Shown here: piece after piece, positions 25,242 through 31,253 of the stretch | How the letters are laid out: every line of letters starts with the position of its first letter | How positions within the stretch are numbered: position 1 is the stretch's first letter | NCBI GenBank assembly: GCA_036276755.1 | Contig: DASUOG010000028.1 | Coordinates: 1,040 to 65,039 of the forward strand | Length of the DNA: 64,000 bases | Direction of reading: 5' to 3' | Source: Candidatus Saccharimonadales bacterium | Lineage (GTDB): Bacteria > Patescibacteriota > Saccharimonadia > Saccharimonadales > 2-12-FULL-41-12 | The notes under the pieces: generated by a model | Told to the model about the DNA's origin: nothing | Seen by the model: the letters and a program-made list of their open reading frames with translations, nothing else | The model's database searches: none | Program-made: the position numbers and the translations under genes

Positions 25242-26087
25242 ATGGAAACAAACAAACAAACAAAAACAGGTTTGGCCAAGTATTTGCCGATCTGGATGGC
25301 TATCTTGCTGTTGTTGGTTATTTTTCTCGCCCCTACGGTCGGTGCGCTTACTACCCTATCCCAGGGCTACTACTCTAACGATAAGGTCGCCTTAGGCTCT
25401 ATCGTCAGCCTTAAGAGCAAGTCGTCCGATCAAGTGGTAGCGTCGACAAATTCCACTTCTGACAGCATGCTGGGAGTCATCATAGATAACGGGAATTCCC
25501 TGCTGTCGCTCAAGAGCGGCAAGGACGAGCAGGTCCAGGTAGCGACAAACGGGACGGTGCAAGTATCGGTTTCCGATATTAACGGGGAGATAAATAAGGG
25601 GGATCACATCACTGCCTCTCCGATCAAAGGCGTGGGCATGAAAGCGACCGGTAACACCAAGGTCATCGGCATAGCCCAGGACAATCTTTCTGAAAACGAA
25701 TCAAGTCAACAGACCTATACAGATAAAGGCGGTGAGCAAAAGATCATAAAACTCGGTCAGGTGCCGGTTATAGTAAATGTCTCTTATTACTACAAACAGC
25801 CCGACAAGACATTGATACCTTCCGCCATTCAGAATATCGCCAACGCCCTAGCCGGCAAACAGGTAAACGCTACGCCCATCCTCATCAGCGCGGGAATTTT
25901 CATAATCACTCTCATCGTAGTCGTCAGCATCGTTTATTCAATGATCCACAGTAGCATCATTTCGGTCGGTCGTAATCCGATGTCCCAAAAGGCCATATAC
26001 CGCGATCTTATACAATTATCAGTACTGGTTATGGTTATACTTGTAGTAGCCTTAATATCAATATATATGGTACTTACGAAGTTTTGA
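25242..26087 (+). CDS. membrane protein: N-terminal TM, extracytoplasmic beta-rich domain, C-terminal two-helix hairpin; first gene of the ATP synthase operon
   Basis: ATG at 25242 (METNKQTK) with an AGGA-like RBS; the track lists an upstream TTG at 25206. Its stop lies 1 nt before the b-like gene. The C-terminal hairpin is ...IFIITLIVVVSIVYSMIHSSIISVGRNPMSQKAIYRDLIQLSVLVMVILVVALISIYMVL. Confidence 0.6.
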   Translation: METNKQTKTGLAKYLPIWMAILLLLVIFLAPTVGALTTLSQGYYSNDKVALGSIVSLKSKSSDQVVASTNSTSDSMLGVIIDNGNSLLSLKSGKDEQVQVATNGTVQVSVSDINGEINKGDHITASPIKGVGMKATGNTKVIGIAQDNLSENESSQQTYTDKGGEQKIIKLGQVPVIVNVSYYYKQPDKTLIPSAIQNIANALAGKQVNATPILISAGIFIITLIVVVSIVYSMIHSSIISVGRNPMSQKAIYRDLIQLSVLVMVILVVALISIYMVLTKF

Positions 26088-26088
26088 C

Positions 26089-26703
26089 ATGAGTTTTTTG
26101 CAAATATTACTGGTTATAAACGCATTCTTCATTGGCATGCTCTCGGCCATCGCCTTGCGGCATGCCCTGGCCCATTTCAAACCCCACGTGCATGACGGCG
26201 AAAAACGCCATGCTCGTACGCCTCAGCAGAACGGACATCTGCCGCCGGCGATCCGGGAAAAATTACTCGAAGAAGCACAGGCGAATTTCCATTTGATGTT
26301 AAGGCGTTCGGCAAAGGAGCTGGAAAAGGATTTGGAAGTTACCACCACGAAAATCCATCAGACACTGGAAAAAGAAGGTAACGATGCTATCCGCCATCAG
26401 GTAAAGTTATACCGTGACCGGTTGACTCAGCTGCAGGAACAGACAGAAGACAATATCGCCGATATTGGTAAAGACCTCTCCTCTCATCAGACTGAACTCA
26501 AAGCAAAACTTGCCGAAGAGATAGAAGTCGAGAAAAAGCGCCTGATCCAGCAGATAGATACCAAGCTGGCCGATGCCGTGGGATCGTTCTTAACGGAAAC
26601 TTTGCAGCACAATATAGATTTAGGCGCCCAGAGCGATTATCTGAAGAAAATGTTGGAGGAACACAAGGCCGAAATCGCCAAAGAGGTGTCCAATGAAAGT
26701 TAA
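26089..26703 (+). CDS. atpF: F-type ATP synthase peripheral-stalk subunit b-like protein
   Basis: Single N-terminal TM, then a long charged coiled-coil. Sits immediately upstream of delta. The call is by topology and position only. Confidence 0.55.
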   Translation: MSFLQILLVINAFFIGMLSAIALRHALAHFKPHVHDGEKRHARTPQQNGHLPPAIREKLLEEAQANFHLMLRRSAKELEKDLEVTTTKIHQTLEKEGNDAIRHQVKLYRDRLTQLQEQTEDNIADIGKDLSSHQTELKAKLAEEIEVEKKRLIQQIDTKLADAVGSFLTETLQHNIDLGAQSDYLKKMLEEHKAEIAKEVSNES

Positions 26704-27178
26704 GCTGGACGGCAGCGTAGCTTCTCCGCAGGATTTGAAAACCTTGATACTAGAGATGCGTGGTTATGCGCACTGGTTCTCGCAGAACGCGGTAAAAAAA
26801 CGCCTTAACGCAAAAAGCGCATCGGAAAAGCCGGATTTATCCGTGGCGGCGGAAAGCCTGATCCGCGATTTGAACCAAAAAAAATCGCTCGACCGCAAAG
26901 GTCTGGATGAATTGATAGCCGACCTGGAAGAATTCGCAGATACTGCGCCGCGGCTTAACGTCACCCTCGCCGCACCACCGGTAAGAGGACTCAAAAAAAC
27001 ATTGGTTAACTGGCTACGTGAAGAGATATCCCCGGAAATATTAGTAACATTTGATTTCAATTCTACCTTGCTCGGGGGCATGGTTCTGCGCTGTGGCAGC
27101 CGGATCTTTGACTGGTCCCTACGCCGTCAGATCCTGGATGAACGCGCACGTTTCCCGGAGGTATTGCGGAATGCATGA
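26693..27178 (+). CDS. atpH: F-type ATP synthase subunit delta (OSCP)
   Basis: C-terminal pattern LVTFDFNSTLLGGMVLRCGSRIFDWSLRRQI matches the OSCP C-terminal signature. Position is between the b-like gene and alpha. Confidence 0.7.
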   Translation: MKVKLDGSVASPQDLKTLILEMRGYAHWFSQNAVKKRLNAKSASEKPDLSVAAESLIRDLNQKKSLDRKGLDELIADLEEFADTAPRLNVTLAAPPVRGLKKTLVNWLREEISPEILVTFDFNSTLLGGMVLRCGSRIFDWSLRRQILDERARFPEVLRNA

Positions 27179-28673: not shown

Positions 28674-29536
28674 GACGCGCTAATGCCATAAAGAAGGATG
28701 CCGAACAGATCGGTACCGTCAAGGACCTTACCGGGGTGTTTGAAAGCGTCGCAAGCACACAGGTAGCTAAAGTAAAGAACAAGGTCGCTCTTTCCAAGGA
28801 ATTTTTCCAGCTGCTCTGGACACGCTACAGTTCTATACGAATAGATCCCGGCTCGCGCATAACCGAACGCGACGAAAGCCAGGAGAAAAACAGGAAAGCA
28901 TTCGTGATAATTTCCGCCGAATCGGGCCTGAGTGGAGATATAGACCTGCGGCTTATCGAAAGCATGCTTCAGGACTATGATGCAAAGGACACCGATATCG
29001 TCGTGCTCGGTTCGCATGGCGCCAACCAGCTGATGCAGCGCGGTATTCCCTTCATCCGATACTTTCAGGTGCCGGAAAGCGACAGCTACATCGACGTCAG
29101 TCCGGTGATCGAAACCATCGTGCCTTATTCAAGCATAACCGTATATTATGAAGAATACGTCTCTCTTGGTGTCCAGGATGTCAAAACCATTGACCTCATA
29201 TCCAGGATGCGCGATATGAGCGAAGAAGTCAGTCCGGACGAAGATATTATGACCGACAAGGACACTATATTCGAACCTTCCTTGGATGAAATAGCGAATC
29301 AAATGGAAGCGACCATGATGACGCTGGCCTTAAGCCAGACCATCCTGGAATCAAGTCTGGCGCAGTCGGCCAGCCGCTTCAACGCCATGGCCGTAGCCAA
29401 ACAGCATGCTTCCGACCTCCTGAGTGATTACAGGCTCGAATTCCACCGGGCCAAACGGGCCGACAGCGACCGGCGCATGCGGGAAATCATGATAGGTATC
29501 AAAAGGAAAAAAAGGCTGCATAGGGGGCGCAGATGA
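28670..29536 (+). CDS. atpG: F-type ATP synthase subunit gamma
   Basis: Sits between alpha and beta with 4-nt overlaps on both sides. N- and C-terminal long helices (..[10 protein letters not shown]..; ..[27 protein letters not shown]..) typical of gamma. Confidence 0.8.
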
Positions 29537-30975
29537 ACCAGAAAAAAACCAAAAGCCATCTGGAAGAAATAGGGGTTATCCAATCACTGAACGGTCTCGT
29601 GGCAGAAGTTGAGATCCTGAATAAACAGCCGGAGAAAAAAGAACTTTTGATCGTCGAAGATTGTCCCGATGCCTTTTTAGAGGTTGATTTTTTCAGGGAC
29701 GGAGCGGCGGTCTGCATCAACCTGACCAACAGTCGGGAACTGCGCTGCGGGCAAAAAGTGTTTAAAAGCAATACCCTAGCCAGCGTGCCCGTAGGGCCGA
29801 AAACCCTGGGCCGGGTATTCGACGCCCTGGGGAATCCTATTGACGGCGGTCCGCAGATTACCGAAAACCGCAAAGCCACCAGCGAAGCTACGGGGACCAA
29901 AAGCTATCGCAGCAGCCAAAAACTGGAATTGCTGGAAACGGGCATAAAGGTCATAGACTTCCTGACTCCGTTCGTAAAGGGTCGCAAGATCGGTATCGTC
30001 GGCGGCGCCGGCGTCGGCAAAACGGTATTGACCATGGAACTCATACACAACGTCACGCGGGACAAAAAAAGCCTCTCGATTTACTGCGGCGTCGGTGAAC
30101 GCATACGCGAAGGAAATGAATTGTATGAAACCCTTAAGGAAACCAACGTACTGAAAAATACCGTGATGTTCTTCGGCCAGATGGATTACACGCCGGCTAT
30201 AAGGGCCATGGTAGGTCCGGCGGCAGCGGCATCGGCGGAATATTTCCGCGACGAAGAGGGCCGCGACATACTGTTTTTTGTCGATAACATCTACCGGCAT
30301 ATCCAGGCACTGACCGAACTTTCTACCAACCTCGGCCTCATAGCTTCGGAGGGAGGCTATTCGCCTACGGTCTTTGCCGAACTCAGGCGCTTGGAAGACC
30401 GGCTCAGCTCTACCGAGAAAGGTACTATCACTTCAGTGCAGGCCGTATATATCCCGGCCGATGACCTGTCCGACCCGGCAGTGCAGGCGATTCAGCAGCA
30501 GCTTGATTCAGTCCTTGTACTTTCCCGAACGGTAGCCGAAAGCGGCATACGTCCCGCGGTCGACCTGCTTAAGACGACTTCCTCTCTGCTGACTCCTCAG
30601 ATCGTCGGCGAACGCCACTACCGGCTCGCGGGCAAGGTCCAAGCCATAATGCAAAAGTACGAATCGCTGAAAAATATAATCGCCATAGTAGGCGAAAACG
30701 AACTGTCCGCCGCCGATAGGATAGACTATGAGAATGCTAAAAAACTAATAGCCTTCTTCTCGCAGGATTTCGCCGTAGCCGAGCATCTCACCGGCAAACC
30801 GGGCCAGTATTCTACTCTTGAACAAACATTGGACGGAATAGAAAAGATCCTGAGCAACGATTCAATACCCGAGCCGGACAAAGGCGAACCCAAGGAGGAA
30901 AAACCAGAGGAAAAACCAGAAGAAGAGCCAGAGGAAGATAAACCAGAAGAAGAAAAACAAAAAGACAGCAAATAG
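29533..30975 (+). CDS. atpD: F-type ATP synthase subunit beta
   Basis: Walker [42 protein letters not shown]. Has an acidic KPEE-repeat C-terminal tail. Confidence 0.95.
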
Positions 30976-30989
30976 CCCAGGGAATACTT

Positions 30990-31253
30990 ATGAGCCATAA
31001 AGATGAAGATGAAGAACTGACCGTCATCGCCCGAGCACCGTTTCATATATATTATGAAGGTCCCGCGGATGTCGTCACGGCGACCAATAAAGTCGGCCAG
31101 TTCGACATCCTACCCGGCCATGCTGATTTTTTCTCCATATTAAACCCTGGCGATGTTCTGATTGAAACCAAAACCAAGTCCTTGAACTTTCATATATCAA
31201 ACGGTATCGTCGCCGTCCGCGATAACGAGGTCATGCTGTTCGTCAATATGTAG
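30990..31253 (+). CDS. atpC: F-type ATP synthase subunit epsilon (beta-sandwich domain only)
   Basis: 87 aa with the pattern GQFDILPGHADFFSIL...NGIVAVRDNEVMLFV. Lacks the C-terminal helical hairpin. Confidence 0.75.
   Translation: MSHKDEDEELTVIARAPFHIYYEGPADVVTATNKVGQFDILPGHADFFSILNPGDVLIETKTKSLNFHISNGIVAVRDNEVMLFVNM

Follow-up and report, generated by a model that had tools for sequence, protein, structure and literature searches.

A seven-gene F1-like ATPase operon in Saccharimonadales headed by a two-helix hairpin protein in place of subunits a and c

We analyzed a 64,000-nucleotide stretch of a Candidatus Saccharimonadales genome (contig DASUOG010000028.1, hereafter the window) and describe here a seven-gene operon on its forward strand (25242-31253), which encodes F1-type head and stalk proteins and begins with a gene for an unnamed 281-amino-acid membrane protein, p1. 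The F1, delta-like, b-like and p1 proteins are encoded as one unit, and genes for subunits a and c never adjoin them. We hold with moderate confidence that the cluster specifies a self-contained F1-like rotary ATPase, distinct from F1Fo ATP synthase and equipped with a membrane sector of its own; the best reading of that sector, by analogy with the F1-like X0 ATPases of mycoplasmas, is that it would not translocate ions. A preliminary description of the operon had left three explanations side by side: that subunits a and c are encoded elsewhere, that the lineage uses a very divergent membrane sector, or that the first gene is an unrelated surface protein co-transcribed with the ATPase. The second of these is the best supported, although not in the sense that the cluster would be the lineage's only, oddly built ATP synthase.

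The operon, its F1-type proteins and its conservation

The operon consists of the following genes:

25242-26087 (+): p1, 281 amino acids, head gene of the operon and proposed membrane sector
26089-26703 (+): b-like, 204 amino acids, proposed peripheral stalk, judged by position and architecture only
26693-27178 (+): delta/OSCP-like, 161 amino acids, Pfam OSCP match in the C-terminal part only
27171-28673 (+): F1 alpha-like, 500 amino acids, ATG at 27171, Pfam ATP-synt_ab
28670-29536 (+): F1 gamma-like, 288 amino acids, Pfam ATP-synt
29533-30975 (+): F1 beta-like catalytic subunit, 480 amino acids, Pfam and PDB matches
30990-31253 (+): epsilon-like, 87 amino acids, Pfam ATP-synt_DE_N, N-terminal domain only

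The order p1-b-delta-alpha-gamma-beta-epsilon had been given in the preliminary description, and the open reading frames (ORFs) were found there in that order, which is also the order in relatives. The junctions had been put at gaps or overlaps of 1-8 nt. This is roughly right, though two of the spacings, which from p1 to epsilon run +1, -11, -8, -4, -4 and +14 nt, lie outside the range (-11 and +14). Since the genes overlap or nearly abut, translational coupling is indicated across the whole seven-gene operon. A scan for promoters and terminators was uninformative: it returned 3 promoter-like sites, where chance alone would give 8. The genes upstream of the operon are, as described before, on the opposite strand, and comprise a 39-amino-acid pilin-like ORF (hereafter the mini-pilin) and a GNAT acetyltransferase.

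The head proteins are recognizable as F1 subunits. Alpha matched Pfam ATP-synt_ab at an E value of 2e-68, and its P-loop (GDSKSGKS) and SVSRVG motif can be read directly in the sequence; its NCBIfam atpA scores, 402-414 bits, were under the cut-offs of 484 and 554. Beta (Pfam, 2.5e-63; NCBIfam atpD, 444 bits against a cut-off of 463) has F1 beta subunits as its closest matches in the PDB, at 372-395 bits, compared with 286 bits for the Mycoplasma G1 beta. The beta P-loop, the catalytic glutamate of GER and the Walker B region line up with solved F1 structures, IPADD is retained and DELSEED is changed to NELSAAD. Gamma was matched by Pfam ATP-synt (3.9e-29) and scored 88 bits in NCBIfam against a cut-off of 194, while epsilon (Pfam ATP-synt_DE_N, 1.4e-13; NCBIfam, 44 bits against 67) consists of the ring-binding beta-sandwich domain alone, the C-terminal helices being absent. 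None of the F1 subunits reached an NCBIfam equivalog cut-off; the catalytic motifs are intact nonetheless, and on its sequence the alpha3beta3-type pair is catalytically intact.

The stalk proteins are more distant. The C-terminal part of the delta-like protein was matched by Pfam OSCP (E 6.5e-6, 26.8 bits against a cut-off of 22.3), and its top PDB matches are ATP synthase delta subunits (E 0.002); NCBIfam TIGR01145 gave 23 bits against a cut-off of 57.5. The b-like protein has a single N-terminal transmembrane helix followed by a long coiled coil. No b-subunit model matched it in Pfam (ATP-synt_B) or NCBIfam, and its top PDB match, a b-delta fusion, had an E value of 2. Two further features of the head were observed: the C-terminal tail of alpha is lysine-rich (window 28500-28673) and that of beta acidic and rich in proline, glutamate and lysine (window 30870-30975). 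Beta ranges in length from 443 to 524 amino acids in close relatives, and both tails would face the membrane side of the head.

The preliminary description had found no subunit a or c beside the operon, and this holds for the whole window. PF00119 (subunit a) and PF00137 (subunit c) matched none of the operon proteins, and a six-frame search of all 64 kb with a subunit c profile built from seven sequences and with E. coli subunit a found neither subunit in any frame. For a comparison with relatives, a beta scan of one genome per species gave 80 loci and a p1 scan of Joint Genome Institute (JGI) metagenomes 80 more; the loci set comprised 88 fetched via beta and 80 via p1 (168 loci, 2.15 Mb). 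The same queries, run in six frames over these 168 related loci, found no ORF for subunit a or c there either.

All related loci come from metagenome-assembled genomes (MAGs) of Saccharimonadia (TM7, within the candidate phyla radiation (CPR), also called Patescibacteria), a few of which carry loose or wrong names. The order p1-b-delta-alpha-gamma-beta-epsilon is kept in every related locus that has enough sequence. The preliminary description had proposed a comparison of operon heads in relatives, and here, of the 139 b-like genes preceded by 1 kb or more of sequence, 137 have a p1 hairpin ORF directly upstream. Conversely, p1 without ATPase genes was found in none of 79 loci fetched via p1. 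Pseudogene remnants were ruled out, the ORFs being intact and 54-90% conserved over more than 150 loci.

Clustering of beta separated the loci into three paralogous clades of identical architecture: clade 1 (62 loci, the window included), clade 2 (13 loci, ~60% identical to the window beta) and clade 3 (~50% identical to it). The p1-like head ends in all three with ...SIGRNPL... and then a second helix, and a second homologue search (seed P0122) brought up further p1-type clades. A clade 1 locus (L056, 849-870 kb) and a clade 2 locus (L086, 13-35 kb) lie ~830 kb apart on what we read as one complete chromosome because both records, OY970378.1 and ERZ25039476 contig_17805, are 1,189,924 bp long; this chromosome thus apparently holds two operons. 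The 1.19-Mb record is labelled 'Candidatus Parcubacteria' by NCBI, and its genes group with Saccharimonadia. Thousands of clusters at 90% identity of such alpha, beta and gamma genes exist in Saccharimonadia, and in the literature we found no description of an F1-like ATPase, or of missing a and c subunits, in Saccharibacteria or CPR bacteria. The operon is real, very widespread and apparently undescribed.

The head protein p1 and its C-terminal hairpin

The protein p1 is 100% identical to the NCBI hypothetical protein VFX86_03925 of a Candidatus Saccharimonadales MAG, encoded on a contig of 66,451 bp, and each of its 1642 homologues is an unnamed protein. An AlphaFold model built with 65 homologues (predicted local distance difference test score, pLDDT, 77.7) shows an N-terminal helix (12-33), an all-beta domain (39-183), a short helix (194-203) and two long helices (210-241 and 246-280). 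The parts discussed below are encoded as follows:

25275-25340 (+): N-terminal hydrophobic helix, residues 12-33, from the AlphaFold model
25356-25790 (+): extracytoplasmic all-beta domain, residues 39-183, from the model and Foldseek
25869-26081 (+): two-helix transmembrane hairpin, residues 210-280, model helices 210-241 and 246-280
25968-25979 (+): codons of G243-R244-N245-P246, cytoplasmic hairpin loop, from family conservation

In the model the N-terminal helix could be a signal peptide, with possible cleavage after VGA, or a membrane anchor; the family consensus of this helix closes with an A-x-A-like motif. The extracytoplasmic domain, put at ~200 amino acids in the preliminary description, comes to ~150-170 in the model. 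Its beta fold resembles capsid decoration or cement proteins of phages in a Foldseek search of the PDB (8pkh, E 2.3e-4; 8hdt), with TM-scores of 0.45-0.59 when normalized to the target. By sequence, residues 94-183 are 36% identical (E 1e-8) to residues 1132-1201 of a 1384-amino-acid protein encoded nearby, and they also resemble part of an 884-amino-acid phage tail-fibre-like protein (L169 8201-10855, an IMG/VR contig), the sole find in viral contigs. Apart from a weak match to PF23982, p1 has no meaningful Pfam match, and a phmmer search of the PDB returned none. An identity as AtpI or AtpZ was ruled out, given the lack of a Pfam match and the different architecture.

The two-helix hairpin with a short polar loop, described before as the end of p1, is also what the model gives, the loop reading VGRNP. 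The sequence S-x-G-R-N-P is invariant in 65 clade 1 sequences and in 11 hairpins sampled from all three clades, and conservation of p1 peaks at the end of helix 1 and in this loop, not in the surface domain. Several of its properties recall subunit c. The R-N-P of the loop aligns on the R-Q/N-P loop of c subunits, and 77 hairpin columns pair with 78 of the 79 residues in E. coli subunit c, an end-to-end match in length. The predicted topology, N-out, loop-in, C-out, is that of subunit c, the N-out orientation following from the exported domain that would precede the hairpin. The gene directly precedes the b-like gene, from which 1 nt separates it, and so occupies the usual place of atpE.

The similarity was gauged with profile comparisons. 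HHalign of the hairpin against seven c subunits scored 17.1 (P 0.012), with a probability of only 1.5-3.6%; 40 column-shuffled decoys had a mean of 8.8, a standard deviation of 1.8 and a maximum of 13.6, and the reversed profile scored 9.8. In a scan of 18,950 NCBIfam models, the sole match of p1 was NF005521, 'F0F1 ATP synthase subunit C', at an E value of 0.008 and 16 bits against a cut-off of 122, with p1 residues 194-275 falling on positions 14-99 of the 101 in the profile. The same family is the one matched by most p1 relatives (5 of 65), and four different c-subunit models were matched by diverse hairpins at E < 1. The resemblance is thus weak, yet it came up in tests independent of one another. 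Descent of the hairpin from subunit c is plausible, if unproven.

Helix 2 had been reported to carry no evident mid-membrane aspartate or glutamate, and in the family such a residue is absent from the core in 124 of 126 members. Gln258 is nearly invariant in clade 1 and replaced by glutamate in one locus (L072), and clade 3 has no glutamine there. Going by these residues, the p1 hairpin is not a functional ion-binding c subunit.

A proposed separate rotary ATPase and the alternatives to it

These observations can be put together as follows. The p1 protein would be exported, with its beta domain outside the cell, and its C-terminal hairpins, probably derived from subunit c, would oligomerize into a ring whose cytoplasmic G-R-N-P loops would dock gamma and epsilon. 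With neither a subunit a nor a membrane carboxylate, the machine would not be coupled to an ion gradient and would act as an ATPase only: ATP made by fermentation would be hydrolyzed and the gamma-epsilon-p1 assembly turned against a head held by b and delta. Because both a central and a putative peripheral stalk are encoded, rotation against a membrane element would still be the point of the machine. Through its ecto-domains, p1 would pass the work on at or beyond the membrane, possibly to the products of the neighbouring surface-protein genes, and the output would then most likely be mechanical.

Genomes of relatives bear on how such a machine would stand beside ATP synthase. In Southlakia there is one contiguous operon, atpI-B-E-F-H-A..., in a genome where the remaining F1 genes are annotated once each, and this operon is dispensable for growth (PMC10633639). 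According to a BlastKOALA table of KEGG Orthology (KO) assignments (PMC12592800, Table S5), TM7x and RAAC3 have every subunit once; S. aalborgensis, GWC2_44_17 and M. amalyticus have a, b and c once and alpha, beta and gamma twice, which suggests a separate, complete canonical operon; and five genomes of the order CAILAD01 have alpha, beta and gamma, with epsilon present or absent, and no a, b or c. The authors of the table left this pattern uncommented (PMC12592800). Its simplest reading is that a second F1-like system can accompany or outlive the canonical enzyme, the extra sets being putatively of p1 type; co-occurrence with the canonical enzyme in one genome is taken here from this published table of relatives. 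An exhaustive search of representatives for a canonical Saccharimonadales beta returned unnamed proteins at 40-49% identity, and the S. aalborgensis beta was absent from the best 120 matches of a search seeded with a 'Saccharimonas sp.' beta. On the basis of the related complete genomes in the KO table, that a and c are encoded elsewhere is probably true but beside the point. The preliminary description had held that canonical atpB and atpE elsewhere in the genome, together with p1 relatives unlinked from an ATPase, would speak against a special membrane sector; the former are probably present in relatives, but the latter were never seen.

When set beside canonical F1Fo (atpIBEFHAGDC, as in Southlakia epibionticum and TM7x), the cluster shares the order b-delta-alpha-gamma-beta-epsilon after a membrane gene, the catalytic motifs of alpha and beta, an OSCP-like delta, the epsilon beta-sandwich and an R-N-P-loop hairpin where subunit c is normally encoded. 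Unlike the canonical operon, it has neither subunit a nor AtpI; its hairpin lacks the ion-binding Asp/Glu and the GxGxGxG of subunit c and is fused to a putatively exported domain of ~150 amino acids; and its epsilon lacks the C-terminal helices, its DELSEED is changed and its subunits score under the equivalog cut-offs. The N-ATPases (atpDCQRBEFAG) are likewise a second F-type gene set besides a main one, but they were ruled out since they keep a and c, add AtpQ and AtpR and have another gene order; with the alt_F1F0 models, alpha scored 364 against a cut-off of 750 and beta 413 against 752. A membrane protein with a sizeable non-cytoplasmic domain that would associate with a rotor has parallels in Ac45/ATP6AP1, PRR/ATP6AP2 and yeast Voa1, which are single-pass, luminal-domain additions to the proton-translocating c-ring of V-ATPase; p1 is likened to them by architecture, not by sequence or fold.

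The closest analogy is with the F1-like X0 ATPases of mycoplasmas, which comprise Types 2 and 3, Type 2 being the gliding motor of M. mobile, G1-ATPase (Beven et al. 2012, PMC3369863). There too, an extra seven-gene cluster stands beside a genuine F1Fo in a host-dependent bacterium with a tiny genome, proteins like alpha, beta, gamma and epsilon are combined with non-Fo membrane proteins, a membrane carboxylate is lacking and more than one cluster per genome is possible. Moreover, the mycoplasma Protein 5 combines a predicted signal peptide and a large domain with a two-helix hairpin at its C terminus (PMC3369863). In mycoplasmas, however, the clusters are devoid of b and delta homologues and include a Protein 1 with 12 transmembrane helices (PMC3369863), whereas the Saccharimonadales cluster has b-like and delta-like genes and encodes no such multi-helix protein, and the gene orders differ. 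Against the MSC_0618/0619 and MMOB1660/1670 models, the window's alpha and beta scored 260-389 bits, under cut-offs of 520-850, and they are not members of these families. Beta is nearer to true F1 beta than to G1 beta, as the bit scores given above show. An origin independent of the mycoplasma X0 ATPases is likely. We therefore compare function, not family: by analogy, the cluster would work like an F1-like X0 ATPase without belonging to the mycoplasma families.

Several points weigh against a separate ATPase with a c-like rotor. Pfam ATP-synt_C never matches p1 or 11 diverse hairpins, where the matches are scattered membrane-protein noise only; a hairpin profile search of the PDB gave no match; and the hairpin has no glycine-rich packing motif of the kind found in helix 1 of c rings. 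The scores lie far under every cut-off and do not establish the hairpin as a homologue of subunit c. Two divergent clusters, L073 (6609-11550) and L075 (6613-11724), start at the b-like gene and have no p1 upstream; the upstream neighbours in L073 are DsbA/DsbB-like genes on the opposite strand. The p1 ring, its contact with gamma and epsilon, and rotation are predicted only, and without a subunit a the b-like stator would have no obvious hold against the ring.

Among the alternatives, the one that survives best is a split conventional ATP synthase, for which this operon would supply F1 and the stalks, with a and c encoded elsewhere and p1 acting as an accessory or assembly factor or as an extra component of the ring. 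Other bacteria are known to have split atp operons, beta is nearer to true F1 beta than to the Mycoplasma G1 beta, and the two clusters without p1 at the head would be accommodated. Canonical a, b and c do occur in related complete Saccharimonadales genomes (PMC12592800), but where they are counted once, alpha, beta and gamma are counted once or twice, and a, b and c therefore seem to have an F1 of their own. The five CAILAD01 genomes with alpha, beta and gamma and no a, b or c also argue against a split enzyme, as do the two p1-type clusters that apparently share one chromosome, the cluster's own b-like and delta-like genes and the position of all subunits under the NCBIfam equivalog cut-offs. 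We consider this alternative unlikely.

More improbable is a divergent yet ion-coupled ATP synthase, in which p1 would be a true subunit c with an unusual ion site and another protein would replace subunit a; the candidate sites would be the conserved glutamine at +12 after the loop or Glu5 of the mini-pilin. The loop, topology and length of the hairpin are c-like, Gln258 is nearly invariant in clade 1 and is a glutamate in L072, the adjoining mini-pilin has a membrane-embedded glutamate, and the putative peripheral stalk would be full, as in coupled enzymes. Against this, helix 2 is free of carboxylates in almost all hairpins, with the glutamine missing as well in clade 3, no multi-helix membrane protein with a buried arginine lies in or beside any cluster, and the mini-pilin is missing from clades 2 and 3 and from ~40% of clade 1 loci.

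That p1 is an unrelated co-transcribed surface protein, with F1 and the stalks working as an ATPase that is soluble or bound peripherally, is the least probable of the three and very doubtful: the ecto-domain does recur in a giant surface protein and in a tail-fibre-like protein of phage type and the similarity to subunit c is statistically weak, but p1 stays linked to the b-like gene, which starts 1 nt after it, over three ancient paralogous clades while flanking genes vary, was never met without ATPase genes in the loci fetched through it, and is most conserved in its cytoplasmic loop, not in its surface domain.

Neighbouring genes and implications

The genes next to the operon that recur in relatives are as follows:

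25032-25151 (-): mini-pilin ORF, 39 amino acids, prepilin-type leader, then G|YTLLELLVVI and a hydrophobic helix, no globular domain
31264-41903 (both strands): block of unannotated secreted or membrane-anchored proteins, defined by synteny
31264-32274 (-): d1
32401-41903 (+): d2-d7, including a 1384-amino-acid protein with the p1 ecto-domain
37749-41903 (+): the 1384-amino-acid protein, two Reelin subrepeat-B domains

The mini-pilin is transcribed divergently from p1. Homologous ORFs of 31-48 amino acids with a prepilin leader and a G|F/Y-T-L-L-E hydrophobic helix are found at the same position in 77 of 136 loci (L001-L005, L007 and L010-L012 among them). Of the 80 ORFs of this kind in 2.2 Mb, ~78 are the immediate upstream neighbours of p1, and they occur in clade 1 only. 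From this position alone, we infer that the mini-pilin is part of the ATPase system.

The d1-d7 block follows the ATPase cluster in ~60 of 80 clade 1 loci, the upstream context being variable, and homologues of d1, d5 and d6 are likewise found downstream of the clade 2 cluster in L086 (11622-21320). With d homologues at clade 2, either the association is older than the duplication or the entire region was copied in one piece. Pfam matches of the block are limited to Reelin subrepeat B and weak Ig/PKD matches, and we propose that d1-d7 are associated with the ATPase. In L086, several paralogues of 344-405 amino acids end in a conserved ...TLT(L/I)VA(S/A)G(S/R)F strand. A further gene, d8 (41907-42413, minus strand, 168 amino acids), encodes an N-terminal transmembrane helix and has no family match; homologues (E 1e-33 to 1e-37) adjoin clade 2 and clade 3 clusters in L064, L066, L072, L073, L079, L086 and L087.

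On the minus strand 7 kb upstream of the ATPase operon lies a complete type IV pilus cluster (5898-18215) with a PilX-like protein, three full-length pilins, a prepilin peptidase, PilC, PilT, PilB and PilM. Its adjacency is probably incidental, since the upstream context is not conserved in relatives; its prepilin peptidase could process the mini-pilin. Also on the minus strand are two paralogous secreted proteins of ~280-310 amino acids (21304-22242 and 23334-24182), which have no Pfam match and share a C-terminal region, ...DLQQDCVKAAL...KKLLYRCTPGKGVTRV.SVYRLKV.... A tyrosine recombinase/integrase gene (4984-5901, plus strand) adjoins the window's only tRNA gene, tRNA-Arg(CCT) (4300-4374, minus strand), and the two may mark an integration site.

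Together with these neighbours, the cluster allows a bolder and more tentative proposal, which we regard as possible and rather doubtful: a membrane-spanning rotary motor of Saccharibacteria that would send torque outside the cell, with p1 forming a c-ring-like rotor, turned by F1 and crowned by extracellular beta domains, and b and delta as the stator, and that would drive the neighbouring surface proteins and, in clade 1, the mini-pilin. If this were true, the motor could serve in adhesion, in moving over surfaces or in attacking the host bacterium, and F1 would have been recruited for mechanical work independently of the mycoplasma gliding motor.

Respiratory chains are missing from CPR bacteria, Saccharibacteria included, and what their 'ATP synthase' genes do is a standing puzzle. 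In metabolic reconstructions, genes for alpha, beta and gamma are taken as a sign of an F-type ATPase, and the present analysis indicates that a large share of these genes in Saccharimonadia belongs to a different, channel-less machine; calls of module completeness and energy models for Saccharimonadia would then need revision. With this cluster, F1 seems to have been recruited a second time for something other than ATP synthesis, here together with a putative peripheral stalk and a c-like membrane subunit whose added domain would be external. Relatives are cultivable and now genetically tractable, and in M. amalyticus, which has two alpha/beta/gamma sets according to the KO table, these predictions are directly testable.

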